NCBI GenBank assembly: GCA_947474635.1
Contig: CANJJB010000002.1
Location: 6,533-70,532, forward strand
Reading direction: 5' to 3'
Length of the DNA stretch: 64,000 nt
DNA from: Parachlamydiales bacterium
Lineage (GTDB): Bacteria > Chlamydiota > Chlamydiia > Chlamydiales > Rhabdochlamydiaceae
Positions 3,793 to 56,875 of the stretch are shown here, piece after piece; within the stretch, counting starts at the first letter, position 1, and each line of letters starts with the position of its first letter. Below the pieces are notes generated by a model. It had not been told where the DNA came from. It worked only from the letters and a program-made list of their open reading frames with translations, and ran no database searches. A program made the translations under genes and the position numbers.

Positions 3793-3935
3793 ATAACAAC
3801 AATTAATAATAGTGATGTTAATTTCACATCTATCATTGCGCGTAATTATATGTACAATTATTTATAAACAAAAATAGATTGTCTCTATTTTTGTAAATGG
3901 TATAAAATGGAAATTAGGAGCATCTCTAACGGCTT

Positions 3936-4262
3936 TTAATCACAGTGAGCGAGCTTTAAGCCAATGATGCCAATGATGATCAAGAAAATAGAAATGAGTC
4001 TGATGATGTGATAAGAGTCTCCGAAGAGAAGTATGCCTGTTACAACAGTTCCTGCAGCTCCAATACCTGCCCATACAGCGTAAGCTGTTCCAATCGGGAT
4101 TGTTTTCATCGATTGGGACACGGCAAAGAAGCTAAGAACGATAAAGATAACCGTGATGATGCTGGGAATAAGTTTGCTAAATCCATGGCTGTACTTTAAA
4201 GCGATTGTAAAACAGATCTCAAAAAAACCAGCAAGCAAAAGAAATATCCAAGCAAGTGACAT
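3936..4262 (-). CDS. sugE: SMR-family small multidrug/guanidinium exporter (SugE-like)
   Basis: 108 aa with four TM helices and a membrane-embedded Glu in TM1 (GFFEICF). Length and layout are typical of the SMR family. Confidence 0.85.
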   Translation of the reverse strand: MSLAWIFLLLAGFFEICFTIALKYSHGFSKLIPSIITVIFIVLSFFAVSQSMKTIPIGTAYAVWAGIGAAGTVVTGILLFGDSYHIIRLISIFLIIIGIIGLKLAHCD

Positions 4263-4297
4263 AAACCCTCTCTTCTTCTGAATATACGGCTCTATTT

Positions 4298-5857
4298 TTA
4301 AATGTCAACGGTGTAATTTGTGATAAGTTTGGTGTAGGCAGAGACTTGGTTTTTTTGCCAAGCGGCGCTTTTTTTTAGTTCTTTAGCCATTAATTTAGCG
4401 ACAAGAGGAGCCGCCTTAAGGCTAGCTTTAGCATTGAGTAAAAGAGAGCGCGTGCGTCTTGCTAGCACATCTTCTACACTTCTTGCCATCTCATGTCTGA
4501 CAGACCATATGACTTCAGCTTGGTAATAAGGAAGAGAAGGATGGATTTTTTGTCTTAATGATTTAGATGTGCGCATCAAAGCTTTGATCTCTTTTGCATG
4601 GAAGCCATAAGTGGAAAAATGTGCAGTGGGCCTAAGCTTTTCTTGATAGCCATGTAGGGGAAGCGTTTTTGTCTCGCAGGGTCTATGGGAAAGGTGTCCT
4701 GTGTGAATGGCTTGATTGATGACGTCTTCTGCCATTTGTCTATACGTTGTCCACTTGCCTCCAGTGATCGTAATGAGTTTCGATTTAGAAACTAAAATCG
4801 TATGATCACGGGATATCTCTTTTGTATCATTGCTATCACCACTTTTAACAAGAGGGCGCAGGCCTGCAAAAACGCTCAGGATGTCTTTTCTAGTAGGCGC
4901 TTTTGAAAGGTATTTAGCTGCATGTTTAAGAAGAAAGTCGATCTCTTTTTTTTGCGCTTTAGGCTCAAGGGAAGGCTTTGATACTGCAGTATCAGTTGTT
5001 CCTAAGATCACGCGATTGTGCCAAGGAACAAAAAAGATCACCCGTCCGTCGTCTGTGTGGGGAATGAGCATGGCACTTTTGCCTGGCATGAAGGCTTTTG
5101 GTAAAACAATATGGATGCCTTGGCTGGGACTAATGATGTTTTTTACTTGGGGCTTATCCATTTGACAGAGGTGATCAGAAAAAACGCCTGTTGCGTTGAT
5201 CACAACTTTAGCTCTTAAGGTCAAATGCTTGCCTGTTTCTATATTTTTTGCTTTGATGCCACAGATCGTGCCGTTTTTTTTAATGAGGGATGTACACTGC
5301 ATGTAATTGAGTAGGGTAGCTTCGTGATCATGGGCTGTTTGTGCAAGAGCAATTGCTAGGCGAGAGTCATCAAATTGCCCATCGTAGTAAATGGTGCCGC
5401 CTCTTAGATCTTTTTTTTCTAAAGTAGGTATGGCTAAAAGGGTTTGTTTTCTTGTGAGGTGTTTTGATTTTTCTATTCCTAGTTTGCCAGCTAAGAGATC
5501 GTAGATCTTAAAGCCAACTCCATAAAAAGGGCCTTCCCACCATTTGTAGCTCGGAACAAGAAAGGGGAGGTGGTGGATCAGGTGGGGCGCATTTTCACAG
5601 AGGTAGCCCCTTTCATGGAGAGCTTCTGTTACAAGAGCAATATTGCCTTGCTGCAAGTATCTTACGCCGCCGTGGATGAGTTTTGTACTTCTGCTCGATG
5701 TTCCCTTAGCAAAATCTGATTGTTCTATGAGGAGAGTTTTAAAGCCTCTTGAGGCTGCATCAACAGCTGCTCCCAGGCCTGTAGCGCCGCCTCCAACGAT
5801 GAGGATGTCCCATTCTGCTTGTTTTTCTAAGGAAGAGAGCATTTCATCTCTTTTCAT
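4298..5857 (-). CDS. glpD: FAD-dependent glycerol-3-phosphate dehydrogenase
   Basis: 519 aa with N-terminal FAD fold [15 protein letters not shown] and similarity to GlpD along its length. Overlaps the glpK stop by 4 nt. Confidence 0.9.
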
Positions 5858-8165: not shown

Positions 8166-8765
8166 CTATTCTGAAAAAAGATGGCGAGCTACGACTTGCG
8201 TAACAACTCCTATGATGAGCAGTCCCACGACTCTCAATGAATCTTCTTCCATGACTATTGGGTAGAATGTTCTACTAAAAAAGGTTCGTTCCCTCTCTTC
8301 CCTAGGTGTTTTAGAATCTGGGTAAAAGTTTTTTAAAATTGGAAATTGTTCGATAATAGCACTGCCTAGATGCCCTTTAAATTGTGTGATAAGAGTATTG
8401 CCTACCAGGACTGTGCAGATAGTATATTTTAACAGGGGATTCAAAACGGAATTGAAAAAAGATTTTTCCGTTAACAACACGTCTGATATTGTGCAAAAAA
8501 AGCCGATAGCTACACCGGTGGTCTTGAAGACTTGATGCCGCGCCTCATTACTTTTTTGTGCCATAGACATATCGAATGCATAAGCTAGAAAGTAAGCAAC
8601 CGTTCCATGAAAAGCTCCTACCTTATAGAGAGTAGAGGTAGCAAGGCTAGCGCCTCTAATAGTGTTTAATGCTAAAAAATGTACTACGCTCCCAATACCA
8701 CTTATGACCTCAGCAGCTTGTGGAAGCCTCATTGCGCCCCCGGCATATATTGTCACATTTTCCAT
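8166..8765 (-). CDS. Gly/Ala-rich multi-pass membrane protein, paralog A
   Basis: 199 aa. Shares blocks with 8916-9566: MEN start, TTG[VL]AIG[FV]F..IS, and C-terminal G[IL]L[IL][IV]GVV[TA]Q. Confidence 0.6.
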   Translation of the reverse strand: MENVTIYAGGAMRLPQAAEVISGIGSVVHFLALNTIRGASLATSTLYKVGAFHGTVAYFLAYAFDMSMAQKSNEARHQVFKTTGVAIGFFCTISDVLLTEKSFFNSVLNPLLKYTICTVLVGNTLITQFKGHLGSAIIEQFPILKNFYPDSKTPREERERTFFSRTFYPIVMEEDSLRVVGLLIIGVVTQVVARHLFSE

Positions 8766-8797
8766 ACTAGTCCTTGTTGCTCTGTTAAATTAGGATA

Positions 8798-8828
8798 AAT
8801 TTTACTCTAGATAATAAGTTTTTTACAA
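8798..8828 (-). promoter_or_regulatory. putative sigma70-like promoter for paralog A
   Basis: The minus strand reads TTGTAA-N19-TAAAAT about 30 nt upstream of the ATG. It lies within a block duplicated upstream of paralog B. Confidence 0.3.
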
Positions 8829-8915: not shown

Positions 8916-9566
8916 CTATTTTGAACAGATTGCGTAGTTTGCCATTTGAGCAACAACTCCTACTAAGAGTATTCCCAGTGCTTGTGCGGAAGCTTCATAA
9001 ATCTTTATGTTGTTAGCAAGCCCTATCGAAGGGCTTTTTCCCTCAGAGGCTGATTGCTGAGATCCTAGGTCCCTACTATGCCACACGGCTTTCACGTAAG
9101 CGACACCGTTTGGAAATTGGGAGATAGCTGCACTGCCTACTAGAGCTGCATAACCAAGAAGCGTGAATGGCATATTTAAAGAAGGTGCGTTTGTTGATAA
9201 CATTTTTGAGATTTGAGAAAACACTCCAATAGCTAGGCCTGTAGTTATGAAGACTTCATTCAGTTCATTAAAGCGTTTCGGAGAGTTTCCATTCGGGCCG
9301 TTTCCAGATATCAAATTGACTCCTATTCCCAAGGCTAACCCGCCTATTGTATAAGCAGAGCATTTTGCAAAAACAGTTAATATGCGTCCAGTCAACGCAA
9401 GACCCTCTGCTCCGAAAGCAATACCGCCTGCTGCTAAAGAACATGATTGGTTCCAAAGACCAGTTAAGCCTTGTCTAGTGAGCCTAAGACCGCTTGCTGT
9501 TAAAGAATATGCTCCATTTCCAAAAGCATGATACCCATTTCCTATAGATACTCTGATATTTTCCAT
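8916..9566 (-). CDS. Gly/Ala-rich multi-pass membrane protein, paralog B
   Basis: Start set at ATG 9566 (MENIRV, matching MENVTI of paralog A), with AGGAG at 9572-9576. See paralog A for the shared blocks. Confidence 0.6.
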   Translation of the reverse strand: MENIRVSIGNGYHAFGNGAYSLTASGLRLTRQGLTGLWNQSCSLAAGGIAFGAEGLALTGRILTVFAKCSAYTIGGLALGIGVNLISGNGPNGNSPKRFNELNEVFITTGLAIGVFSQISKMLSTNAPSLNMPFTLLGYAALVGSAAISQFPNGVAYVKAVWHSRDLGSQQSASEGKSPSIGLANNIKIYEASAQALGILLVGVVAQMANYAICSK

Positions 9567-9599
9567 AATAACTCCTATTTTTGTGTTCAATCAGGCTAA

Positions 9600-9629
9600 A
9601 TTTTACCCTAGGTAATAAGTTTTTTACAA
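9600..9629 (-). promoter_or_regulatory. putative sigma70-like promoter for paralog B
   Basis: The minus strand reads TTGTAA-N18-TAAAAT. The surrounding ~48 nt is about 80% identical to the region upstream of paralog A. Confidence 0.3.
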
Positions 9630-22204: not shown

Positions 22205-23083
22205 ATGAACTACTTCTGGAACAGGTTATTTGCCCGCTTTGTTGATTATGGGACGTTTTACCTATCGGGTATCCTTGTTTATCTGATGCTTCCCTTGGAA
22301 TGGGGAGAGTATTTCTATTGTTTCTTTGCTTTGGCTGTACCCTTCATTTGGCCTTTTATTGAAGCTATCCTGGTAAGCAGTAAGGGCAAGACCTTAGGTC
22401 AAAAAATGTTCGGCATGAAGATAGAAGATGGTAGGGGATCTACCCTTGCCTTCAAACAAGCTCTTCAGCGAGCTCTCTTTATAGGCAAGAGACCGGGTAT
22501 TATTAAGTTTAAACAGATTAACCGCTACCAGTACTTAGTCACTCTTTTTCTTGCAATAGCGTGCGTTTCTTCCTTGTTTTTAGGAGAAGAGATTTCAAAT
22601 GTTGCTGTTGAATATGAGCAAAATATGACAAAAGAAGGCTGGATTCAGTACTCTTCTAAAGATGAGCGCTTCACAGTGAACTTTCCTAAGAAGCCTGAGC
22701 ATGAAACCCTCTCATTTGATCTTCCTAACTCAGACAAATCTCTAGACTTGAAAGAAGTTAAAGCAGTAGCTGATGTTGAGTTTTCTGTAAGTTACGTAGA
22801 GCTTCCTAGAAAATGGCGTATCTTTAGCTCGACCACGCTTCTTAAAGGTGCTATGAATGTTGTCGTAGAGAACATGCCCGGTGCAAAAATCATGCAAAAA
22901 ACGCACATGAAGTATAAGAACTACCCTGGAATTGACTTCCACATGACCCAAAACGGCAATGAAATTGAAGGAAGATTGATCCTAGTGGGAAGCACTCTTT
23001 ATAAGCTCACTGTCACGCGCCCTCAAGAGATTGCACATGAGGTGCAGCACGAGGAGTTTCTTGATTCGTTTGATCTAAAGTAA
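22205..23083 (+). CDS. RDD-family membrane protein with unknown C-terminal domain
   Basis: N-terminal RDD-type TM domain (RLFARFVDY ... GKTLGQKMFGMKI). The C-terminal ~170 aa is soluble and unassigned. Confidence 0.65.
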   Translation: MNYFWNRLFARFVDYGTFYLSGILVYLMLPLEWGEYFYCFFALAVPFIWPFIEAILVSSKGKTLGQKMFGMKIEDGRGSTLAFKQALQRALFIGKRPGIIKFKQINRYQYLVTLFLAIACVSSLFLGEEISNVAVEYEQNMTKEGWIQYSSKDERFTVNFPKKPEHETLSFDLPNSDKSLDLKEVKAVADVEFSVSYVELPRKWRIFSSTTLLKGAMNVVVENMPGAKIMQKTHMKYKNYPGIDFHMTQNGNEIEGRLILVGSTLYKLTVTRPQEIAHEVQHEEFLDSFDLK

Positions 23084-23096
23084 GTCATTATTCTTG
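23069..23096. repeat. direct repeat, copy 1 (contains stop codons of the RDD gene and of hepT)
   Basis: TTTGATCTAAAGTAAGTCATTATTCTTG, identical to 23821-23848. Confidence 0.9.
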
Positions 23097-23435
23097 TTCT
23101 AGAACAGCAACAATTTGCTTGAGCTGCTCACATAAGGATGGCAGATAATCGCGGAGTGTTTTCCAAACAACATCATGATCAATATGGAAATAGGCATGGA
23201 TCAGGCGATTTCTCATTCCAGTGGTATCTTTCCATGGGATTTGAGGAAATCGCTTTTGTGTTTTGTTAGAAATTTTTCCAGCGGCTTCCCCTATAATTTC
23301 AAATTCCCTAACAACAGCTGACAGAAACTGCCTGTCTTTATCCAAATCGATTCTTTTTCTTCCTCGGGCAAAAGAAAGAATAGCTTGAGCAGAGTCAAGC
23401 ATATGTTTAAAGCGAATTAAATCTTTATTTTCCAT
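23088..23435 (-). CDS. hepT: HepT-like HEPN/DUF86 toxin
   Basis: 115 aa with HEPN motif R-x4-H-x-Y (RNRLIHAY). Confidence 0.85.
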   Translation of the reverse strand: MENKDLIRFKHMLDSAQAILSFARGRKRIDLDKDRQFLSAVVREFEIIGEAAGKISNKTQKRFPQIPWKDTTGMRNRLIHAYFHIDHDVVWKTLRDYLPSLCEQLKQIVAVLEQE

Positions 23436-23733
23436 AGATAGTGTATGCTTTTTCTAAGACGTCATTTCGGAAGAAAGGGCTTAAATCGTTCGGAGTTTTT
23501 AAATCGACTTTTCGCCCAATAATTTCGCCAAGTTCTGATTCAATACCTGCAAAGCTGAAAAGATGAGGAATGTGTTTTTTTTCAAATTTGACCAATATGT
23601 CTACGTCACTTTTCTCTGAAAAACTAGAAGTTAAAATAGATCCAAAAAGAGCCAAATAAACAATATGGTATCTTCTACAAAATTTTTCAATCTTACGCTT
23701 GTCCAAGCCGATGGGAATCTTTTTCACGAGCAT
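23425..23733 (-). CDS. mntA: MntA-like minimal nucleotidyltransferase antitoxin
   Basis: 102 aa with LFGS...SDVDILV nucleotidyltransferase motif. Overlaps the hepT start by 11 nt. Confidence 0.85.
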   Translation of the reverse strand: MLVKKIPIGLDKRKIEKFCRRYHIVYLALFGSILTSSFSEKSDVDILVKFEKKHIPHLFSFAGIESELGEIIGRKVDLKTPNDLSPFFRNDVLEKAYTIYGK

Positions 23734-23820: not shown

Positions 23821-23848
23821 TTTGATCTAAAGTAAGTCATTATTCTTG
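23821..23848. repeat. direct repeat, copy 2 (relic of the RDD gene 3' end)
   Basis: Identical 28-mer. The preceding bases CTTTCTTAAC resemble TTTCTTGATTCG before copy 1, apart from a 3-nt indel. Confidence 0.9.
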
Positions 23849-47470: not shown

Positions 47471-48281
47471 TTAGTCCTTTGTTATTATTTGCGTTATTAA
47501 AACAGCTGTCCCTAAATTTTCGGGGATCTTCAGAAATCATCTTCCTTAAGAATTCAATTACAGGATCGTCGATTTTTAGGAAAGAGTCAGGATCAGCAAT
47601 ATATGCAATCTTACCATCTTTTATCAGCGCAAGTCTATTCCCAACACTTAAAGCAGATAAAATATCATGGGTCACAACGATGCTTGTTCCTTTTAATTCT
47701 TTTTGCGTTTTTACAATGAGTTGATTGATTTGCATAGCGGTGATGGGATCAAGACCGGTTGTTGGCTCATCATAAAGAAGGAGTGAGGGGCGGTAGACAA
47801 TCAGCCTGGCAAGGCCTGCGCGTTTACGCATGCCTCCTGATAACTCAGAGGGCATTTTTTTTTGTGTGCCTGCAAGGCCTACCATCTCTAACGCGTGGTC
47901 GACAAGATCTTGCACTTCATTATCTGTATATTTTTTTCCTTCTTTGAGATTGCCGTGTTCCTTCAGAAAAAAGGCTGTGTTTTCTTCGACGTTCATCGAA
48001 TCAAAAAGAGCTGCTCCCTGAAAAAGCATGCCCATATCGATGATTGCTTTATAAAGCTCTTGTCCTGATAGTCCAGATACGTCTGTTCCATTCACCTCAA
48101 TTGAGCCTTCATCTGGCTTGGATATGCCGATGATGTGTTTGAGGAGCACGCTTTTCCCCATGCCAGATCTTCCCAAGATGACAAGGGTCTCTCCATTCTG
48201 GACATCGAGATCAAGTCCTGCTAGGACTTGAAGCTTGCCATATTTTTTCCAGAGGTTTCTTATTTTAATCATATATACCAA
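47463..48281 (-). CDS. mlaF: ABC transporter ATPase, MlaF-like
   Basis: Walker A GRSGMGKS, signature LSGGMRKR, and Walker B LLLYDEP. Confidence 0.9.
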   Translation of the reverse strand: MVYMIKIRNLWKKYGKLQVLAGLDLDVQNGETLVILGRSGMGKSVLLKHIIGISKPDEGSIEVNGTDVSGLSGQELYKAIIDMGMLFQGAALFDSMNVEENTAFFLKEHGNLKEGKKYTDNEVQDLVDHALEMVGLAGTQKKMPSELSGGMRKRAGLARLIVYRPSLLLYDEPTTGLDPITAMQINQLIVKTQKELKGTSIVVTHDILSALSVGNRLALIKDGKIAYIADPDSFLKIDDPVIEFLRKMISEDPRKFRDSCFNNANNNKGLNV

Positions 48282-48293
48282 ATATCACAAAAG

Positions 48294-48421
48294 CCCTTTA
48301 TTGGGAAAGCAGCGAAAGTTCCCAGGGTTCAATGATTACAGACGGGGCCATATTAATTTAATATTGACTGCCTCTATAATCATTGAACCGCAAGAACTTT
48401 GGCTACTTTCCCAACAAAGGG
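48294..48421. repeat. long imperfect inverted repeat (45-nt arms, 38-nt loop) in the mlaE-mlaF spacer
   Basis: 48294-48338 pairs with 48377-48421. There are 3 transition mismatches (G-U compatible) and one 4-nt internal loop. Confidence 0.55.
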
Positions 48422-48442: not shown

Positions 48443-49264
48443 TTAATCTAAAAAGTTGGAGATTTTTTCGCGGAGCACATTCAGAATCACGGTCAGAAAA
48501 AAGTTGCTAAACAAAATACAGCAATACGAAATCACAACGCTATTGGTGGTAGATTTTCCGACACCTTCCGCACCGCCGGATGTCTTCATTCCTTTGTAAC
48601 AAGAGATGGTCATAATAAGAAACCCAAAGACAAAAGCTTTTACCATCCCTGTCAGCACATCAAACATCGTAATATGGGTGGGCATTGGATCAAAGTAACT
48701 CGTAGGAGCCATACCGAAATAAAAGACAGAAATTAGATATCCCCCAAATATCCCCATGATGATGCCAAATAGTGTCAAAAGGGGCATGATGCCGGTTCCT
48801 GCAAGGCATCTAGGCGCTAGGAGGTAGCGGTGAGGATTGACAGCCATGGTCTCTAGTGCATCGACCTGCTCTGTCACGCACATTGTTCCTAGCTCTGCGC
48901 ACATCGAAGCGCCGACTCTTCCTGTCACCATGAAAGCTGTCAAAACAGGACCAAGTTCTGTGATCATAGCTTTAGCAACCATAAGTCCTGTAACACCCGA
49001 TAGACCTTTATCAGATAGTTGGTAAAAAGATTGCGCAGCAAGTACAAGGCCTGTGAAAAAGCCAGTGATAGCTACAACAGGTAAAGAGGCAACTCCAATG
49101 TCATAGAGCTGTTTAAGCACGAGTTTCAAATGGGGAGGGCGGACAATCGTTGCTTTGCAGATATCAACAAGAAGGCGCATGTATTCGCCCACTCCTGAGG
49201 CAAAGCGGAGCCGACTCATGACAAACTGCAGGGTGGGGCTAAGGTGTTTTTCTTGATGTTCCAT
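48443..49264 (-). CDS. mlaE: ABC transporter permease, MlaE-like
   Basis: 273 aa, multi-TM, with conserved VTGRVGASMCAELGTM..EQVDAL block. Confidence 0.88.
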   Translation of the reverse strand: MEHQEKHLSPTLQFVMSRLRFASGVGEYMRLLVDICKATIVRPPHLKLVLKQLYDIGVASLPVVAITGFFTGLVLAAQSFYQLSDKGLSGVTGLMVAKAMITELGPVLTAFMVTGRVGASMCAELGTMCVTEQVDALETMAVNPHRYLLAPRCLAGTGIMPLLTLFGIIMGIFGGYLISVFYFGMAPTSYFDPMPTHITMFDVLTGMVKAFVFGFLIMTISCYKGMKTSGGAEGVGKSTTNSVVISYCCILFSNFFLTVILNVLREKISNFLD

Positions 49265-49314
49265 CTTACACTAAATAGCATAAATAATCTTTATTGGGAA
49301 GAACTTGACATAAC

Positions 49315-50348: not shown

Positions 50349-51134
50349 TTACCTTGTTATAAAATTTGTTTTTGTAGCTATGTATTGACTCATAACATCA
50401 TTTAAAAATGAAACATTTGTTGCAACACTTTTGATGTTGTCTGCCATCGAGCCTGTCATCTCTTGGAGTTTTTGTTGCATTGCTTCTGTTAGGAATTGCA
50501 AAGCTTCTAGTTCTCCCTCTTTCCAGGTAAGACGGGCCTCATATATGCCGCCAGCAACACCTGAAATGACTTCCGTTATTTTTACGCCTGATTTAAGGAA
50601 TTCCACTATATCCGTAGGAGAGATCTGTACTTGGAAATAAGAGAAAAATAGAGCAGTTGCTAAGAGAGGACCCAGATACCGGCCTGCTTTGCTTAAGTCT
50701 TTTTGCTCTACTCCTGTGGAAAGAGCATTATAAATAAAGGGAAGAAGCCCAAGGGCTATTCCTATAAGAGAAGCTGTAGGACTTGGTGAGGACATCCCTG
50801 CAAAAAGAGCAAATGCAGAGCCTACTAAAGAGCAGATACTTAGGACAGCAGACCACACTCTACTTGACGCAAGAAGAGAGGCTCTACTTTCTAGTTTTTT
50901 TAGATGCTCATTGCTAAAGCTACTTAAATTCTCCATGAGAGCATTACAAACATTTACGGCAATCTTTATGTAATTAGCGTTATTGAAGTCAATTTTATTA
51001 GCAAGCTCAACCATAGCAAATCCAAGACACTGGGTTGGAGCCTCTAATTTGGGCTCAACAGTAAAAGGGGATACAACAGGAGCTTGCTCTGTAGAAGGAA
51101 ATAATCGAGCGGCTTCAGTAACATGTAAAATCAT
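50349..51134 (-). CDS. small type III translocator-like protein (2-3 hydrophobic segments; CopB/YopB-class candidate)
   Basis: 261 aa with central TM hairpin (VWSAVLSICSLVGSAFALFAG, LIGIALGLLPFIY, LGPLLATALFF) and a helical C-terminus. 4-nt overlap with the chaperone gene. Confidence 0.5.
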   Translation of the reverse strand: MILHVTEAARLFPSTEQAPVVSPFTVEPKLEAPTQCLGFAMVELANKIDFNNANYIKIAVNVCNALMENLSSFSNEHLKKLESRASLLASSRVWSAVLSICSLVGSAFALFAGMSSPSPTASLIGIALGLLPFIYNALSTGVEQKDLSKAGRYLGPLLATALFFSYFQVQISPTDIVEFLKSGVKITEVISGVAGGIYEARLTWKEGELEALQFLTEAMQQKLQEMTGSMADNIKSVATNVSFLNDVMSQYIATKTNFITR

Positions 51135-51526
51135 AGAAGTTTCCTCAACTGTTGGAGATTACTTTGGAGCTCTTTATTAAAGGATGCCATCTCTTCAGCA
51201 AGAACAATTGCTTTTAGGGCATCTTCTTTATTGCCAAGAGCGATTAAACACTGCGCTGCATGAAAATGCGCCATAGGATCATGCTCATCTAGGAGAACAA
51301 CCATTGCCCAAGAAGAAATTGCTTCTTCCAGGTTGCCGCTTAGTTGGAGGCACGAGGCAAGGCCTTTCCAATACTTACACTTTAAAGCGGAAACAGCTAC
51401 CAGCCGCTTAAATAACTTCACAGCTTCTGCATAGTTTTTACAAGTATAGGCGTCATAAGCAAGGGCGTAGAGTCTCTCTTTTTCTGCCTCTGACAAAGTA
51501 CTGATGTTCTTTGAAGTAGAGATCAT
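51131..51526 (-). CDS. class II type III secretion chaperone (LcrH/SycD/Scc2-like TPR protein)
   Basis: 131 aa with three TPR-like units (YALAYDAYTCKNYAEAVKLFKRL, YWKGLASCLQLSGNLEEAISSW, HFHAAQCLIALGNKEDALKA). Confidence 0.8.
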   Translation of the reverse strand: MISTSKNISTLSEAEKERLYALAYDAYTCKNYAEAVKLFKRLVAVSALKCKYWKGLASCLQLSGNLEEAISSWAMVVLLDEHDPMAHFHAAQCLIALGNKEDALKAIVLAEEMASFNKELQSNLQQLRKLL

Positions 51527-52038
51527 GCTCTTTGGTTCCGTGTCATGGTTTTTCCAGACTCTGCGTAACTATTGACTATCTTTCCCATGATATCACTGAT
51601 CTCTTTGAGGGTTTTTAAGAGGTTGTCTAATTGGGCTGTCTCTGGGCTCATCTTCATGTTGCGGTTATTAACTTGATCACGCGCGCACTGAATGAGAGTA
51701 TCGTATTTACCGTTTGCTTCTTTGAGCTTGTCAACAAGAGCATGTTCATCGTAATGGCCAGGCTCTCCATTTTTTAGAGCAAAAGGCATGAGTTCTGTCA
51801 CTTTTTTAAAGAGCTCTGTGTGCTGCGTAACATCGATTTCTTTTCCTTCATTTGTATGGAGAAGAGCAATAAAATCGGTGATCGTCTGAATTTCCGTTTG
51901 AATTTCTTTAAGCACTTCTATGCGCTCAACACTTTTAGCGTGACTTTCCGCTTCAATTCTTATAAAGGCATCTACAGCGTCACGGGCTGGATTTTGGAAT
52001 AGAACATCAGGCATAAAATCTCCTTTTTTATCACTCAA
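51523..52038 (-). CDS. hypothetical helical protein, first gene of the chaperone operon
   Basis: 171 aa, all-helical in composition. 4-nt overlap with the chaperone gene. Confidence 0.55.
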   Translation of the reverse strand: MSDKKGDFMPDVLFQNPARDAVDAFIRIEAESHAKSVERIEVLKEIQTEIQTITDFIALLHTNEGKEIDVTQHTELFKKVTELMPFALKNGEPGHYDEHALVDKLKEANGKYDTLIQCARDQVNNRNMKMSPETAQLDNLLKTLKEISDIMGKIVNSYAESGKTMTRNQRA

Positions 52039-52130
52039 GTAATGAATTGTTCTGCCTAAAATAACATAAGAGACATTTTATGTGTTAAAAAAAATAAATT
52101 TCCAATATATCAATAATTTGTCTATGGAGC

Positions 52131-52222
52131 TCCTCACGGAATTGAAAAAACACGATTCCGTGAGGAATATTTGGGGTGCAATTGCTCCTCATGGAAATGC
52201 ATTTTTGCAATTCCGTGAGGAG
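52131..52222. repeat. two tandem hairpins built from four copies of one 12-13-mer (CTCCTCACGGAAT)
   Basis: Copies at 52131-52142 (+), 52155-52166 (inverted), 52185-52198 (+, variant) and 52210-52222 (inverted). Confidence 0.55.
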
Positions 52223-52248
52223 GCCTATAGATAAAATTCTGCTCAATC

Positions 52249-52281
52249 AGTGATTCTTATTCCATTTGAAAGAGAGCTTGG
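52249..52281. repeat. direct repeat copy A: relic of the tamB 3' end (encodes ..KLSFKWNKNH-stop on the minus strand)
   Basis: 30 of 33 positions are identical to 53452-53484. All three differences are transitions. Confidence 0.85.
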
Positions 52282-52289
52282 GGAAAAAA

Positions 52290-53336
52290 TCAGGCCAGGC
52301 GCTTCAGCCTGTAATGGGCAGCTTTTTTAATTCCTTCTTGCGTAATGATCCCTTTTTCTATGAGATCTGCAAGATCTCTTTGTAAAGAACGTCTATTTAT
52401 TCCTGGGCAAAGTGCTTCATAGTCTTGAATGTTAAAATCTTTTTCTTTTGTCATCAGGCTTTCTAATACCTGTTTTTGCCTTTTAGAAAGCTTGTGCTGA
52501 AGCACTAGAACATCTAGTTGCATAGCTTGTGATCCTTTGAGTTGGATTTCATGCATTTGGGTTTCTAACGCTTTGCAGAAATATTCAAGCCAGCTTGTCA
52601 TATCCATGTTGCTGTTTCTAACGGATTGGAGCGCATGGTAGTAATCTTGTCTATTCCGGTCATAGTATTGGCTAATGGTGAAAAGCTTTTTAAAATCATA
52701 GCCTGAACGATAAAGACACAAGGTGGAAAGAAGACGGGAGGTCCTGCCGTTTCCATCGACAAAGGGGTGGATGTGGACGAGCTGAAACTGCGCTATTCCA
52801 GCAGCAAGAACGGGAGGAATTGTTTGTTCATTTTGGAGCCAATCCGTGAGTTCAGTCATCAGAAGAGGTACGTCATAAGGTGCGGGCGGGGTGTAGATGA
52901 TTTCTTTGGTTTTTGAGTTAGCGACATAATTTTGAATCGTTCTGTATTGCCCTGGCTGCGCTGTATTACCCCTTACTCCTTCCACTAAGCGTCTATGAAT
53001 TTCCCTAATCAAGCCTTCGGTGATCGTCCCCCTAGAGAAGACATAGTCCGCAACAAAATCAAAAGCCTTTTTATAGTTGAGTAGTTCTTTTACATCTTCA
53101 GAATCAACATCTGACATTTTTTCGCCTGAAATGAGTCTTTCAGACTGGTCCAGGCTTAACTGCGTGCCTTCTATGTGTGTTGTGTGATGGGCTTCCAAAA
53201 TTAATGCACGAGCTTGCATTTTGGATATCCAGTCTTTTGAAAGGGTTGCTGCTTCCAAAAAACCACGTGTGCGCTCAATGGCAGTAAGGGCCGATGCTAT
53301 GGGGATAGAAATAGTGAATTTAGGCTCAAAAGACAT
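52290..53336 (-). CDS. Fic-domain protein (AMPylase-type) with N-terminal inhibitory-type motif
   Basis: Fic motif [12 protein letters not shown], upstream T-x3-E-G motif (TTHIEG), and a winged-helix-like C-terminus. Confidence 0.9.
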
Positions 53337-53340
53337 GGTT

Positions 53341-53446
53341 TTACGACACTTTTTTCTTTATTATGTCATAAAAGGCTATATCGAGCAATTTTTTTACGAC
53401 ATTTTATGACATTTTTTACGACAAAATTTCTGGAAATGTGTCGTAA
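53341..53446. promoter_or_regulatory. array of six TTA[CT]GACA boxes upstream of the Fic gene
   Basis: TTACGACA at 53341, 53394 and 53416. TTATGACA at 53404. Inverted copies TGTCATAA at 53364 and TGTCGTAA at 53439. Confidence 0.4.
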
Positions 53447-53449
53447 AAG

Positions 53450-56400
53450 CTAGTAATTCTTATTCCATTTGAGAGAGAACTTGGCTTGCTCATCTTCTTG
53501 GGTTTCTGCTTGGAGAACAAAGCCATTTTTGAGTTCGACTTCGACGAGGACATGGCTGGTTTCTGTGCCTTGTGAAAGAGTGATCATGACGCCTTTGGTG
53601 AGGTACTTACCGATTTGGACGGTAAACTGATTCGAGTCGCCAGAAGGGGAGCTGATGTTGAGGCGGTCAACGCCGATGCTTTTACGGATCATCTCAAAGA
53701 CGTTGGGGCCTGAGTTGCCAGAGAGTGAGACAATGGAGTAGGCAAGCTGCGCTGCTTGGAGGGCGCTGAGTTCTGAGACGTCTTTATTAAAGAGGATTCT
53801 AGCTAGTATAGAGCTTGTTGGCATAGAGGGGCTAGATTGGAGTGTGAGTAGGGGAGCGTTTAGCGGACCGCGGAGGAGTGCTGTGACAGTCATTTCGGGA
53901 AGTACTAGCGTGCCAGATAAGTTCAGGTAGGCGCTGGGTGTAGGGGAGTTTATAAAACTTAAGGCGCCCTGGTTTAAGGTAAAATCTTTGCCTGAAAAAG
54001 AAAATGTTCCCTTGATGAGGTTAAGACTACCTTCTCCTTCTATAGAGAGGTTTTTCCCTTTGATGATGAGATCACCCTGGAGCTCTGCATTTAAACCTCT
54101 TCCTGAGAGAAAGATGTGTCCGGGGGCGTGGAAAATGAGATCGTAATAGAAGGGGTAATCACGTTGAGATGTGGGCCTGATTTTACTGACATGAGGAGGC
54201 TTATTGATGTACTCAAAAGGAAGAACGGGAAGATCGATAGGGAGTTCATCAGGTATTTCAATCTGAGCTTTTTTCAAAGTGACTTCCCCTTTAGCAAGTG
54301 TGCTCTCTGTGCTACCGGAAAGAGAAACAGGTCCTGAAAATAAACCAGAGAGCCAGTTCAGATGTAAGACGTTTAAATGGTCGATGTTGAAATCAAAGGA
54401 GAAGGGTATTTTTGGAGCGCAGGCAACAGTTCCTGTACCAGTAAGAGTTCCTTTATCTTGATCGGTTGCTGTAATGGAGGTGATTTTAATGTCGCTACCT
54501 TGTGCTATTCCTTCTAAATAGATCTCTTTTAAGAACATGCCTGTGAAATAGTTTTCATAGGAGCCATTTTGAATGTTGAGAGTGCCTTGGGTGAGGGGGG
54601 TGTTGAAGTTATTGGATAAAAGGAGGTGGCAAGAGAGAAGGCCTGTTGTTGAGTGACTTCCAATGTTGATGAAATCAAAAATTTCTTCCAAGTGCCCTTC
54701 CATGGTAAGCTCTGCCCAGAGGGGTTTTATCCGGTCAATACCAAAACGGAGGGGATAAAAGTTGTACACGATGGGAGCTGTCCCGGTAATTTCAAAAAAC
54801 TGATCGCCCGAGGCTTTAAAATTGCCATGCACTTGCATGATATTCTGATCGATGTTGATTTGCAAAGCGCCTTTGCTGTGTATGGGCACTTTTTTGCCGG
54901 ACTGCAATATGTCTGCTTTTTCCAGAAGGATGTTAGCTCTTCCGGTAAGAGCCTCTTGCGAGCCGTCGATAGAAATGTCTAGAGAGGAGTTGCCTTGGAG
55001 CGTAAATTTGGAAGTCGTAAGGGTTAAGAGGTCGATGGGGAAGTGCTCTGCTTTGACTCTGATTTTTGAGACTGTAGGATTTAAATCAAGTGAAGCTAAA
55101 AAATAACCCCCTTTTAGCTTTAGATCAAACTCTGACATGACAAGCGCTTTGTCACTTAGCTGAATAGAAAAAGGTTTTTGTAGCTCAAAGGATTTTTTCA
55201 GGATGGTGCCCTTGAGGTAATCACATTGGACATCAAAAAAGGGTCTTGCGATATAGAAAGATCCAGAAGATACGCACTCAAAAGGCTCTTTCCATAGGCC
55301 CTTTGCAGAAAAGTCAAAGGTTGATCTCTCTTGCGTTAGATGCGTGGAAAACTCAAATTGATCAAATAAAAACTGTTTAAAGTAGGTATTTTGCCCCTCT
55401 AAGGTAAGCTCTCCACGGGGGTTGTTGAAAAGATCTATAGCTGTAGCTGTTATATTCATTTGAGAAGAGAGAAGATCGTAGCATCGGAGGTTTTGAGTAA
55501 GGCCATAAAAAGAGGTGCTAGGGCCTGTAAAAGAAAGCGATCCTGCTAAAGAGCCTTGGAGCTGAGAGTCTGGAAAAAATAGCTCTAAAGGGGAGAGGTC
55601 TTGTGCTCTTACAAAAAAAGAGCCTTCTACCGACTTATCAGATATTAACAAAGTAGCGTCGCCGGCTATTTGAGATGTCGCAACCATTAATGAGAGGTCC
55701 TTGACTTGGAAACTACTGTCTTGCGCAAAAGAAAAGAGCGTATTTAGTTTGATAGGAGCAGATGTATGAGGCGCATCCCAGTCAAGTTCTCCATTCCACA
55801 TATTATCATTAAGAAGTGCCTGCAGTTTTCCTTTGGGGAGGTGATAAGAAGCTGAGGAGATTTTCAGTTCATTGCTTTCAAATGTGCAAGAGAGGTTGCT
55901 TTTTGTATACGCAACTTCTCCTGTTAAAATCCCGCCAAGTAGCGGAGAAAAATAAGAGAGGTGGGGAAGAAGAAAAGAGGCGGAAGCGCTCTTAGGCGCA
56001 AAATGCTCATTAAAACTTCCCTCTCCTTTGAAACAAACAAGATCACTTTTCAAAGAGATGTGGTGGACATCCAGAGCTCTGCCAGGAAAAAAAGAGAGCC
56101 ATGCTTCAAAAGTTCCTGCCAAGTCTCTACCGTCTATGGAGCGCAGCTGAGATTTAATAGAGGCTTTAATAGGAAGAGAGGAAAAGCTCTGCCAAGGTCC
56201 TTCAAATGCTATATCCACGGCAAAAGAGGCTTCGAAAGGAAAAACATAGAAAGGAGATAAGGCTTCTTTTGATTTTACATCTGCTTTGATAAATCCGGAG
56301 AGAGTATCTGCTCTCTTTTGCCCTTCGATATGGGATGTGAGCATAAGTTCTGATGAGGTAAGACCTGCTTCTATGGAAAAAGCCTTCCCTTTCTTTTTAA

Positions 56401-56875
56401 AGAAAGCTTTTCCCTGAAAAGAACACTCCATTTGGCTCCCTGTATCTATATCATGGAGGGATAGGTGATTTATTTTTGCAGATTTTACTGAAAAGGCCCA
56501 TGGAGATGCAAAAGAGACGCTGGCCTCTCTATCTTTTTTTCTGAAAAAGAGATCTGCATTTTCTATATGAAAATAGCTAATTGCTATCTGCTTTCTTAAT
56601 AAGGGAAGCATGGAAAATCTAACACGCATCGTGTCGATGTGAAGAGTATCTGTGTCATTAAATTCTACCCGGATATCTTTAAGCGTCCACTTGAAGGGAA
56701 GCTCTCCTTGGATAGATCCTATTTTAAGAGAGTAGCCCTGTTCTTTAGCTGCTTCAAACATTTTTTTGCTAAGCGCATTACGTACCCACTCTGTTTGAAA
56801 GGTTGCAAGTAGGATCACGGTAAGAGTTAAACAGCTAATTGCTAATGTAATGAGGTACTTAAGTAATCTGCTCAT
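53450..56875 (-). CDS. tamB: translocation and assembly module subunit TamB-like protein
   Basis: 1141 aa with an N-terminal signal anchor, a long beta-rich body and a DUF490-like C-terminus. Its start immediately follows the Omp85-family gene (stop at 56876). Confidence 0.82.
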   Translation of the reverse strand: MSRLLKYLITLAISCLTLTVILLATFQTEWVRNALSKKMFEAAKEQGYSLKIGSIQGELPFKWTLKDIRVEFNDTDTLHIDTMRVRFSMLPLLRKQIAISYFHIENADLFFRKKDREASVSFASPWAFSVKSAKINHLSLHDIDTGSQMECSFQGKAFFKKKGKAFSIEAGLTSSELMLTSHIEGQKRADTLSGFIKADVKSKEALSPFYVFPFEASFAVDIAFEGPWQSFSSLPIKASIKSQLRSIDGRDLAGTFEAWLSFFPGRALDVHHISLKSDLVCFKGEGSFNEHFAPKSASASFLLPHLSYFSPLLGGILTGEVAYTKSNLSCTFESNELKISSASYHLPKGKLQALLNDNMWNGELDWDAPHTSAPIKLNTLFSFAQDSSFQVKDLSLMVATSQIAGDATLLISDKSVEGSFFVRAQDLSPLELFFPDSQLQGSLAGSLSFTGPSTSFYGLTQNLRCYDLLSSQMNITATAIDLFNNPRGELTLEGQNTYFKQFLFDQFEFSTHLTQERSTFDFSAKGLWKEPFECVSSGSFYIARPFFDVQCDYLKGTILKKSFELQKPFSIQLSDKALVMSEFDLKLKGGYFLASLDLNPTVSKIRVKAEHFPIDLLTLTTSKFTLQGNSSLDISIDGSQEALTGRANILLEKADILQSGKKVPIHSKGALQINIDQNIMQVHGNFKASGDQFFEITGTAPIVYNFYPLRFGIDRIKPLWAELTMEGHLEEIFDFINIGSHSTTGLLSCHLLLSNNFNTPLTQGTLNIQNGSYENYFTGMFLKEIYLEGIAQGSDIKITSITATDQDKGTLTGTGTVACAPKIPFSFDFNIDHLNVLHLNWLSGLFSGPVSLSGSTESTLAKGEVTLKKAQIEIPDELPIDLPVLPFEYINKPPHVSKIRPTSQRDYPFYYDLIFHAPGHIFLSGRGLNAELQGDLIIKGKNLSIEGEGSLNLIKGTFSFSGKDFTLNQGALSFINSPTPSAYLNLSGTLVLPEMTVTALLRGPLNAPLLTLQSSPSMPTSSILARILFNKDVSELSALQAAQLAYSIVSLSGNSGPNVFEMIRKSIGVDRLNISSPSGDSNQFTVQIGKYLTKGVMITLSQGTETSHVLVEVELKNGFVLQAETQEDEQAKFSLKWNKNY
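53452..53484. repeat. direct repeat copy B: functional 3' end of tamB (..KFSLKWNKNY-stop)
   Basis: See copy A at 52249-52281. Confidence 0.85.

Follow-up and report, generated by a model that had tools for sequence, protein, structure and literature searches.

A self-contained fic cassette behind tamB in a chlamydial genome is bracketed by a 33-nt copy of the tamB tail: a probable target-duplicating insertion

The window analysed here is a 64-kb stretch of DNA from a Parachlamydiales bacterium, in which a gene for a TamB/AsmA-like protein of 1141 aa (tamB, 53450..56875, minus strand; Pfam TamB, 4.5e-46, and AsmA) is preceded by a tamA-like Omp85 gene (56876-58699; Pfam Omp85/POTRA). Behind tamB on the same strand lies a gene for a Fic protein of 348 aa (fic, 52290..53336; Pfam Fic PF02661, 1.6e-21), and beyond it twin 38-nt hairpins with a 55-nt period (52129..52222; fold z = -6.0), which represent the ancestral 3′ flank of tamB and were found nowhere else in the window. 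The far border of this variable gap is a 163-aa gene (51523..52014, minus strand), the first of a conserved downstream block in which it is followed by a TPR chaperone-like gene (51131-51526). The GC content of the fic region is 39-44% against 36-49% around it, and no compositional anomaly was found by this measure.

A repeat search of the window returned a 33-nt direct repeat on either side of fic, at 52249-52281 and 53452-53484, with a spacing of 1203 and 91% identity. Pairwise alignment agreed with the initial annotation that 30 of the 33 positions are identical and that the three mismatches are all transitions (T/C). The upstream copy (copy A, minus strand) is the functional tamB tail, encoding KFSLKWNKNY plus the T of the TAG stop, while the downstream copy (copy B, minus strand; 52247..52281 with the rest of its stop) is a decaying pseudo-tail that reads KLSFKWNKNH followed by TGA. 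The repeat had been annotated as the last 10 tamB codons with the stop; the 10 codons hold, but only the first base of the stop is part of it (TAG versus TGA). With up to three mismatches allowed, the 33-mer occurs at two sites in the 64 kb, both flanking fic, and was never matched in 100 dinucleotide-preserving shuffles of the sequence. An assembly artefact was discarded since four independent samples assembled the identical structure and the assemblers' k exceeds the length of the repeat.

The peptide of copy A matches all four relatives compared (L081, L094, L097 and L102). Both copies carry the synonymous states TCT, AAA and xAC, a set that is specific to this lineage: the relatives' tamB tails combine TCC, AAG and TAT in different ways, and none of them has xAC. 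The three differences in copy B are all nonsynonymous and affect F, L and Y, residues that are invariant among the relatives. Since copy B shares its lineage-specific synonymous states with copy A, it would have been formed in situ, and judged by these codons the downstream repeat descends from the lineage's own tamB tail and is decaying.

The TamB C-terminus had only four genome matches (87, 75, 59 and 54% aa), and a single metagenome scan with it added one relative at 53%. The synteny comparison of the tamB downstream region that had been suggested was run on these relatives and confirmed an insertion. The closest relative (L081, 87% aa) has no fic; its tamB tail is single and a homologous hairpin lies 6 nt beyond it, an arrangement that matches the annotated ancestral junction of tamB stop and twin hairpins. 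In L094, Phd-ParE separates the tamB stop from the same twin hairpins. The gap in other relatives is occupied by DarTG, Phd-ParE, a 262-aa ORF or a 605-aa ORF; no tail copy was found behind any of these occupants, and the tamB tail is single in each of L081, L094, L097 and L102. The conserved downstream block follows the gap in L081, L092, L094, L097 and L102. To judge from these genomes, the gap between the tamB stop and the hairpins is a variable hotspot, and the earlier placing of Fic as an insertion at the tamB terminus is borne out by the empty site in L081 and by Phd-ParE in L094. Two contrary outcomes had been named, a fic gene at tamB without a tail copy and a common terminator; neither was found. 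Exact-protein look-ups with the flanking 163-aa protein, Fic and an RDD-domain protein returned only insertion-bearing contigs, so that all contigs with identical flanking proteins already carry the insertion. With no conspecific empty site among them, the pre-insertion sequence is deduced from the relative at 87% aa.

Between the two copies lie a 115-nt box region, the fic ORF and 8 nt, and nothing else, so that the ORF list and box count agree with the claim that only the Fic gene and its box array separate them. The cassette so delimited is 1170 nt long (1.17 kb; 52282-53451) and contains a box array, a putative promoter, fic and a terminator T-run. Six copies of the motif TTA[CT]GACA lie in 53341-53446, and the remainder of the window has a single one. 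The distal array (53394..53446, minus strand) starts 3 nt past the tamB stop and consists, in fic orientation, of one TTACGACA box, a 15-nt gap and three inverted boxes (TGTCGTAA, TGTCATAA, TGTCGTAA) spaced 10-12 nt, an architecture that recurs in about 30 chlamydial loci. The putative fic promoter (53360..53388, minus strand) comprises TTGCTC (53383-53388), 17 nt and CATAAT (53360-53365); it was read from the sequence, its position is conserved at other loci, and a simple consensus promoter scan made no call there. A proximal palindromic box pair, TTATGACA-N15-TGTCGTAA (53341..53371, minus strand), overlaps the -10 and ends 5 nt before the ATG. This pair is found in nearly every chlamydial locus, including loci without the distal array, and by analogy is presumed to be the operator of an autorepressor. 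The right end of the cassette is a terminator-like hairpin with a T-run (52282..52311, minus strand; stem 52311-52291, then TTTTTT and CC), the hairpin overlapping the last fic codons. The window cassette has no downstream box array, where other loci read TGAttttttGCGACA....

Across 80 loci the density of boxes next to fic is 19/kb upstream and 14/kb downstream versus 1.6/kb elsewhere, an approximately 10-fold enrichment. At least three boxes stand on one side of fic in 72 of the 80 homologue loci and on both sides in only 6; neither the orientation of the arrays nor the side on which they stand is fixed, and the boxes track the protein across phyla. This recurrence fits self-repression and, together with the precedent of CccR described below, upholds the annotation of the array as the gene's own, putative, operator.

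The active-site motif and the N-terminal T-x3-E-G motif that had been ascribed to the Fic protein were both found in the ORF. The first is a 12-residue match of the HxFx(D/E)GNGRxxR type (residues 190-201; 52734-52769, minus strand). The second is TTHIEG (residues 52-57; 53166-53183, minus strand), which aligns with TVAIEG of FICD, the motif that holds the inhibitory glutamate; it sits at the end of helix 34-54 in the AF2 model, and T52, T53, H54, E56 and G57 are invariant among 25 homologues. The model places a winged helix at the C-terminus (residues 285-344; 52305-52484, minus strand), with helices at 285-297, 303-309 and 315-327 and strands at 331-334 and 341-344 (block-mean pLDDT 76-91). 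In the third of these helices R315, R316, Q319, R320 and D321 are invariant among the 25 homologues. Foldseek returned full-length matches to 4rgl, 8cil, 3eqx and 7xux, with a probability of 1.00 to many Fic structures, and the sequence was aligned with FICD, CccR and SoFic. On sequence and predicted structure, the protein stands with CccR, SoFic and CbFic2 among the class II Fic proteins that end in a winged helix, and belongs to a Fic-wHTH subfamily of more than 5,800 database proteins at E <= 1e-20. In the ORF list, neither the interval from tamB to fic nor that from fic to the pseudo-tail holds a separate antitoxin ORF. A class I FicT/FicA pair was rejected for want of a small antitoxin gene in the insert, and the annotated class II, self-inhibited type is supported by the TTHIEG/FICD alignment, the fold and the single ORF between the repeats. 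FicT-FicA (VbhT-VbhA) and 'mobile mystery protein B' (TIGR02613) are likewise Fic-domain toxins that spread horizontally, but here the Fic polypeptide itself contains the inhibitory helix and has no partner gene; the match to TIGR02613 is weak (39.7 bits, below the cutoff of 124.4).

CccR of Yersinia pseudotuberculosis (PDB 7XUX) represses itself via an inverted repeat at its own promoter, near the -35/-10 (PMC9755527). It is likewise a class II Fic with an N-terminal inhibitory helix, a C-terminal HTH and no separate antitoxin, and it matches the present protein over its full length in sequence and fold, although at about 21% identity. CccR has one 10-bp inverted repeat with 26-bp spacing, whereas here there are six 8-bp boxes, which form two palindromic pairs with centres about 23 nt apart, along with phased direct boxes; other fic loci, unlike CccR, have a second array behind the gene. 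CccR is also a T6SS effector, whereas this Fic shows no sign of secretion. SoFic (3EQX) and Coxiella burnetii CbFic2 (8CIL) share the domain architecture and fold, and CbFic2 is switched by DNA binding (PMC10628234); no specific operator is known for either, whereas this Fic has box arrays. By analogy, autorepression via its own boxes is most likely: a Fic dimer would bind the boxes and shut off its own promoter, and the inhibitory glutamate E56 would keep the enzyme catalytically quiet. Self-repression together with E56 would explain why this Fic has no partner gene.

The stretch from 53451 to 52284, which is exactly that between the repeats, is similar to other fic loci (L001-L040) at 74-86% nt. 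Similarity to other chlamydial fic loci (about 85% nt) begins directly behind the tamB stop and breaks off 3 nt short of the second repeat, while the flanks of these loci are mutually unrelated and the targets differ in every genome. Since the flanks are unrelated, the 1.17-kb cassette is the transferred unit. The Fic protein is 92% aa identical in MAGs of several chlamydial families, and relatives 57-64% identical in MAGs labelled Coxiellaceae, Legionellaceae and Gammaproteobacteria carry CTTGCGACA-type arrays. Such comparisons show that the fic cassette moves horizontally between environmental chlamydiae. A vehicle was sought on known plasmids, where no close Fic relative was found (best about 35% aa), and in phages, again with no close relative. 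None of the other genomes among the 80 loci has fic behind tamB.

Flanking repeats well above a cross-locus null were found at 6 of 67 testable fic loci, plus L002, with lengths of 33, 36, about 40, 53-68, 106-126, at least 108 and 153 nt; the pair in L040 is 13 nt long. Besides the locus behind tamB, seven other fic loci (range for fic, 13-153 nt) and two MntA-HepT loci carry flanking duplications; of the latter two, the one in the window is a perfect pair of 28 nt and that in L109 a pair of 72 nt. No transposase or integrase was found inside any of these duplicated-flank units. The initial annotation had proposed a recurrent mechanism that acts at gene 3′ ends. Duplications do recur at fic and MntA-HepT, but most are intergenic rather than gene tails, and targeting of 3′ ends is therefore doubtful; it is more likely that it reflects survivorship, a duplication that spans a stop codon being one that keeps the gene intact. 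Since about 90% of fic loci have no detectable flanking repeat, the duplication is either short-lived or the product of only one of several routes.

We propose that the arrangement behind tamB is probably the result of a target-duplicating insertion, by host recombination or replication, of a self-contained, transferred fic cassette. In this lineage the cassette would have entered the interval that separates the tamB stop codon from the conserved hairpins, duplicating a target of at least 33 bp that comprises the final 10 codons of tamB and the first base of its stop. By this process tamB would have stayed intact, while the downstream copy became a non-coding pseudo-tail and then drifted. The predicted empty site would read ...AAT(T/C)AC-stop-TTGAGCAG... 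once. Such an event is of the type called 'insertion with long target duplication', here also of variable length. The duplication would have been made by illegitimate recombination or replication of the host, either at a staggered break with fill-in or by microhomology-guided template switching. A 9-nt overlap at the hepT end in the window (23088-23096) is one candidate for such microhomology. We do not think that a transposase or integrase of the element made it, and duplication lengths of 13-153 nt match no defined enzyme. The inverted box arrays at both ends of many loci have a transposon-like look and count against our proposal. Since the window cassette is without a downstream array, its right junction may be secondary and the 33 nt would then be a minimum.

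Insertion with long target duplication is rare and has until now been reported mostly for restriction-modification genes (Nobusato et al. 2000; Furuta et al. 2010, PMC2853133), whose entry creates duplications of 30 to >400 bp, often across a stop codon. The fic insertion is likewise a small addiction-type unit with no mobility gene, bounded by variable direct repeats of more than 30 bp that are single at the empty site, and the neighbouring gene survives. Set against the definition of Furuta et al., the insert is 1170 nt (<20 kb) with 33-nt repeats (>30 bp), the repeat occurs once in L081, L094, L097 and L102, which are all different species, only fic is present in the insert, and the 33-mer is not multicopy within the 64 kb. 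The cargo, however, is a Fic AMPylase (and elsewhere MntA-HepT), not a restriction-modification system, and we therefore call the insertion a variant of the class rather than a member. Since the cargo is not a nuclease, the DNA breaks by restriction enzymes that have been proposed cannot apply. The hosts differ as well, being obligate intracellular chlamydiae, and here the empty site comes from a different species.

An alternative, which we consider unlikely, is that the cassette already lay behind tamB in a close relative and was acquired with the assistance of homology, one tail copy being donor DNA. This could have occurred by a homologous crossover in tamB with an illegitimate join 33 nt before the recipient stop, or by a circle that integrated through a single crossover in the tail. 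A repeat of 28-33 nt is close to the shortest that RecA-type pairing can use. At other loci, 0-170 nt of unrelated DNA separates the upstream copy from the array, and the spacer in L008 is partly common to L005 and L006, as if donor flank had travelled along. The L011 and L109 repeats diverge unevenly along their length, which is unexpected under simple in-situ duplication, and the differences in L059 are rich in synonymous changes. At L109, however, it is the functional copy and not the pseudo-copy that resembles the ComM tails of relatives, which fits only the circle version (the ComM tails are from a protein search; a genome scan with the L109 ComM C-terminus was dominated by universal ComM motifs and gave no chlamydiae). 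At tamB, the lineage-specific synonymous states in both copies would demand a donor of nearly the same lineage, the 80 loci offer no other genome with fic behind tamB, and the first insertion would still be unexplained.

It is improbable that the cassette is a non-autonomous transposon, in which a transposase encoded elsewhere, or Fic itself, would recognise the box arrays as terminal inverted repeats and the flanking repeat would be the target-site duplication. Inverted arrays of about 58 nt do stand at both ends in L001-L008, L040 and the Parachlamydia locus L225, those at the two ends agreeing at 27-43 of 31-49 aligned positions in 6 of 8, and in L040 no more than about 8 nt separate the 13-nt repeat from the left array, and on the right it directly abuts a truncated array. 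Yet flanking-repeat lengths vary more than 10-fold, and in the window and L022 the right-hand array is missing although flanking repeats are present. Loci with arrays on both sides are scarce and the arrays vary in orientation, the boxes accompany the protein across phyla in the manner of an operator, the window has no solo arrays, and most loci have no transposase nearby. A classical DNA transposon, IS or MITE was rejected for the missing right-hand array in the window and for repeats of 13-153 nt rather than of fixed length.

Less probable still, and in our opinion very unlikely, is a remnant of an integrase-borne island that entered the tamB 3′ end with a replacement tail and later lost the rest by deletion. 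A gene-tail duplication with preserved frame and stop is a hallmark of integrase-type integration at 3′ ends, and phages 21 and e14 integrate at icd with a replacement gene tail. As in those phages and in tRNA/ssrA islands, the gene here is intact and paired with a pseudo-tail in which frame and stop are kept; L059 lies at the ssrA 3′ end, and the Parachlamydia fic adjoins tyrosine recombinase genes. However, no tyrosine or serine recombinase ORF lies between or beside the repeats, the cassette limits are the repeats themselves, the target is different in every genome, and the pseudo-tail is not foreign but of this lineage, differing solely at nonsynonymous sites. A chance match or a common terminator/REP element unrelated to the insertion can be given almost no credence and is refuted for the window: a hairpin within the duplicated segments of L011 and L022 could be such an element, but the 33-mer is coding sequence, is confined to its two sites in the 64 kb and to none in the shuffles, and is absent downstream of the other hotspot inserts.

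To return to target-duplicating insertion, a tentative and rather doubtful extension by analogy with CbFic2 is that fic acts as a one-gene addiction element with its own DNA as antidote. Bound to the multi-box arrays, Fic dimers would keep the promoter silent and themselves inactive or deAMPylating, as DNA does for CbFic2, and loss of the cassette would free monomeric, AMPylating Fic to harm the cell. If so, selfish retention and not an element-encoded recombinase would explain the persistence and recurrence of rare, host-made insertions of Fic and MntA-HepT in chlamydiae and beyond, and insertion with long target duplication would be independent of DNA breaks by restriction enzymes.

The tamB locus offers a clean, datable case in which a small, presumably toxic gene has entered the compact genome of an obligate intracellular bacterium without transposase or integrase, leaving a neighbouring essential-type gene unbroken. 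It would add non-nuclease toxins to the restriction-modification systems for which insertion with long target duplication is known, which argues against restriction-enzyme DNA breaks as its cause. It also defines a very widespread Fic-wHTH subfamily that travels with a conserved multi-box DNA array, and this presumed natural cognate site makes the control of class II Fic enzymes by DNA binding directly testable.

On the minus strand, ORF and domain searches placed a tamA-like Omp85 gene (56876-58699), tamB (53450-56875) and a fic gene for a 348-aa protein (52290-53336), past which lies a conserved block on the same strand, with a gene for a 163-aa protein first and then a TPR chaperone-like gene. 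A repeat search recovered the true tamB end (copy A, 53452-53484, minus strand) and a second copy of it (copy B, 52249-52281, minus strand), identical in alignment at 30 of 33 positions with every mismatch a T/C transition. Since copy A translates as KFSLKWNKNY followed by TAG, and copy B as KLSFKWNKNH followed by TGA, the repeat takes in ten codons plus just the first stop-codon base, not the entire stop as the initial annotation had it. Otherwise its description of the locus is accurate: copy B still reads to a stop on the minus strand, and the interval separating the two copies is made up of 115 nt carrying six TTA[CT]GACA boxes, followed by the fic ORF and a further 8 nt (TTTTTTCC), the remainder of the window containing only one more such box. 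Allowing up to three mismatches, the 33-mer was found in the 64 kb only at copies A and B, and never in 100 shuffles; together with the single tails of relatives, this excludes a chance match or a common terminator as the source of the repeat.

The nearest genome match to the TamB C-terminus is L081, a Rhabdochlamydiaceae MAG (87% aa), in which the tamB stop is followed by 6 nt and then, without fic, by a hairpin homologous to the twin hairpins of the window (52129-52222). This arrangement matches the ancestral junction that had been predicted, and the same hairpins recur in a further relative, L094. In these Rhabdochlamydiaceae-like genomes, the further ones retrieved via the downstream 163-aa protein, the cargo between tamB and the 163-aa gene differs: DarT-DarG (DarT with a macro-domain partner) in L081 (7361-9378), L092 (1-1516) and L093, PhdYeFM-ParE in L094 (4200-4708, between the tamB stop and the twin hairpins), and unrelated ORFs with no Pfam match in L097 (262 aa, 4080-4868) and L102 (605 aa, 3056-4873). 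No second tamB tail was found in the relatives carrying these other cargoes. The twin hairpins, downstream of copy B, are 38 nt each and in tandem with a 55-nt period (twin in L094, single in L081); no T-run follows them, and they may be a terminator, an RNA element or a recombination site. A search of the window for further copies showed that they are not a dispersed repeat there. Since the relatives have no second tail and the hairpins are not dispersed, copy B and the hairpins represent the old tamB 3' flank, and the tamB-adjacent fic is an insertion into a hotspot. Four independent samples yielded assemblies with this repeat-flanked structure, which rules out an assembly artefact and means that the structure is fixed in the sampled population.

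KFSLKWNKNY is encoded by all four relatives compared. Copies A and B agree in having TCT, AAA and a third-position C in the Tyr/His codon; none of the four relatives has this C, and none has the combination of all three states. The three changes in copy B fall on F, L and Y, residues that do not vary among the relatives, and TAG has become TGA at its stop. Because of the joint codon states and the changes at invariant residues, copy B is a duplicate of this lineage's own tail, drifted without selection; the same two observations rule out a functional tail acquired from a distant donor. Dating from the repeats, as had been proposed, gives 3-5 changes per 33-36 neutral sites between copies A and B against 3 synonymous differences per ~10 synonymous sites between copy A and L081, which suggests, as a very rough estimate, that the insertion is younger than the split from the L081 lineage, yet of the same order.

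A Fic genome scan gave 80 loci, the best matches (89-92% aa) being in MAGs labelled, unreliably, Parachlamydiaceae, Waddliaceae, Rhabdochlamydiaceae and others, whereas the TamB C-terminus reached 87, 75, 59 and 54% in its only four genome matches. Nucleotide similarity between the window and fic loci (74-86%) runs from 53451, directly adjoining the tamB stop, to 52284, 3 nt before copy B, and the flanks of the loci are mutually unrelated except in three Rhabdochlamydia loci at one common site. Judged from these limits, the transferred unit coincides exactly with the inter-repeat stretch. Of 39 chlamydial loci, at least 12 have a co-oriented ORF whose end is no more than ~10 nt from the left edge of this cassette, and at several loci a neighbouring ORF lies 1-14 nt from the fic stop. 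No close Fic relative was found on known plasmids or phages, and no base-composition anomaly over the cassette. At L005 (~2890-3110) the fic 3' end is broken by a ~200-nt element with terminal inverted repeats ccccacattccgcatgttgcacggg ... cccgtaacatgcggaatgtggg, which lengthens the ORF to 362 aa. In Parachlamydia loci L223-L225 (e.g. L225 718-3173), the cassette has arrays at both ends and lies ~60 nt downstream of a tyrosine-recombinase gene, one of two mutually inverted copies (528 nt, 88%).

The Fic active-site motif lies at residues 190-201, and HMMER aligned TTHIEG (residues 52-57) with the TVAIEG inhibitory helix of human FICD. The AlphaFold model (mean pLDDT 73) ends in a helix-helix-helix-strand-strand winged helix at residues 285-344 (block-mean pLDDT 76-91), and Foldseek aligned the whole chain with Dde_2494 (4rgl), CbFic2 (8cil), SoFic (3eqx) and CccR (7xux). 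On the strength of this alignment, fold and set of matches, the protein is predicted to be a self-inhibited class II Fic, as first proposed, with a DNA-binding tail. The cassette contains no second ORF, in keeping with the proposal that the protein needs no separate antitoxin.

The distal array (53394-53446, fic orientation) begins 3 nt past the tamB stop and consists of a forward box, a 15-nt gap and three reverse boxes at 10-12 nt spacing. Between it and the proximal pair is a putative promoter in fic orientation (TTGCTC, 17 nt, CATAAT), whose -10 element is overlapped by the second palindromic pair, TTATGACA-N15-TGTCGTAA (53341-53371), ending 5 nt before the ATG. This layout is repeated across chlamydial loci, and remoter homologues (53-64% aa; MAGs labelled Legionellales, Coxiellaceae, archaea and others) have CTTGCGACA-type arrays. 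Over the 80 loci the density of [AG][CT]GACA is 19/kb in the 180 nt upstream of fic and 14/kb in the 120 nt downstream, against 1.6/kb elsewhere, and at 72 of them one side of the gene carries three or more boxes. In many loci a second array directly past the fic stop is an inverted copy of the upstream one; the window is without it, its TGAttttttCC being followed by copy B, whereas TGAttttttGCGACA... stands at this place in other loci. In a few loci the upstream array has been turned round; L012, L023 and L033 have the distal array upstream but in the opposite orientation (three forward boxes, gap, one reverse), which suggests that the array was inverted or the cassette circularly permuted. 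The closest experimentally studied precedents are CccR, which represses its own promoter via a 10-bp inverted repeat (PMC9755527), and CbFic2, in which DNA binding drives the dimeric deAMPylating state (PMC10628234). Given these precedents and the conservation of the boxes, self-repression through them would be the best-supported function.

We compared 310 nt upstream with 350 nt downstream of fic at 67 loci, with boxes masked and a cross-locus null. Six loci exceeded this null by a wide margin: the window (33 nt), L022 (36), L015 (~40), L011 (53-68), L008 (106-126) and L059 (153). L002 has a repeat of at least 108 nt that runs up to the contig end, and in L040 a 13-nt pair tightly brackets the cassette. 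In the repeat-flanked loci the downstream copy adjoins the right end of the cassette, and 0-170 nt of other DNA separates the upstream copy from the array, part of this spacer in L008 being common to L005 and L006. A gene tail is part of the duplication in just two loci, the window and L059. L059 comes from a gammaproteobacterial MAG; its fic cassette has a CTTGCGACA-type array and lies at the tmRNA gene 3' end, and the flanking repeats (1261-1413 and 2852-3004, 95% identical), with no integrase between them, hold a neighbour gene's last codons and 29 nt of the ssrA 3' end.

The MntA-HepT case of the initial annotation was confirmed in the window: hepT (23088-23435) and mntA (23425-23733), both minus strand, are flanked by a perfect 28-nt direct repeat (23069-23096 and 23821-23848) holding the last four codons and stop of an RDD-domain gene (22205-23083) together with the final two codons and stop of hepT. 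The hepT end thus overlaps the target by 9 nt, which looks like junction microhomology. On every contig that reaches past the identical RDD gene the module is already in place, and hence no empty site was found. In another chlamydial genome, L109, a related module is flanked by a 72-nt repeat (2814-2884 and 3649-3720) that reproduces the final 21 codons, with the stop, of a comM/yifB-like gene, with 7 differences in the first 24 nt and 1 in the other 48; the functional copy agrees with relatives' ComM tails. Elsewhere in the window, mlaE (48443-49264) is bracketed by a 34-nt direct repeat (48274-48307 and 49267-49300, 76% identical), and an 82-nt repeat (8747-8828 and 9548-9629, 78% identical) covers the 5' regions of tandem membrane-protein paralogues (8166-8765 and 8916-9590), an ordinary tandem gene duplication.

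Insertion with long target duplication is known from restriction-modification systems of Helicobacter, Haemophilus, Neisseria and others; the repeats there measure ~30 to >400 bp and in many cases cover a start or stop codon, so that the target gene is spared. The authors suspected DNA breaks made by the restriction enzyme (PMC2853133). The fic insertion in the window matches this in every structural respect and differs in its cargo, so that it represents the same insertion type with a different load. Since Fic and MntA-HepT are not DNA nucleases, the restriction-enzyme explanation cannot be general, and we favour a host process, which could be fill-in at a staggered break or template switching guided by microhomology, the latter suggested by the 9-nt hepT overlap. 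Homology-assisted entry from a near-identical donor is a less likely alternative, and would account for the spacers travelling along and for the uneven divergence in the L011 and L109 repeats. The inverted arrays suggest a transposon mobilised in trans, but this is contradicted in that the repeats vary in length, some repeat-flanked copies are without one array, and the arrays track the protein across phyla. No transposase or integrase was found inside any repeat-flanked fic or MntA-HepT unit. Neither the limits of the cassette nor a pseudo-tail native to the lineage fits an eroded integrase island.

The insertion is real and the initial reading essentially right. Flanking repeats do recur, but the position at gene 3' ends is better explained as a side effect of variable target duplication together with selection than as targeting. 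Under the favoured host process, rare insertions would be kept through addictive or regulatory cargo and duplications that leave the neighbour gene intact. A self-regulating Fic of the CccR kind is known, and what is new here is the unusually elaborate, conserved box array; likewise, insertion with long target duplication is known, and what is new is its non-nuclease cargo and its occurrence in chlamydiae.
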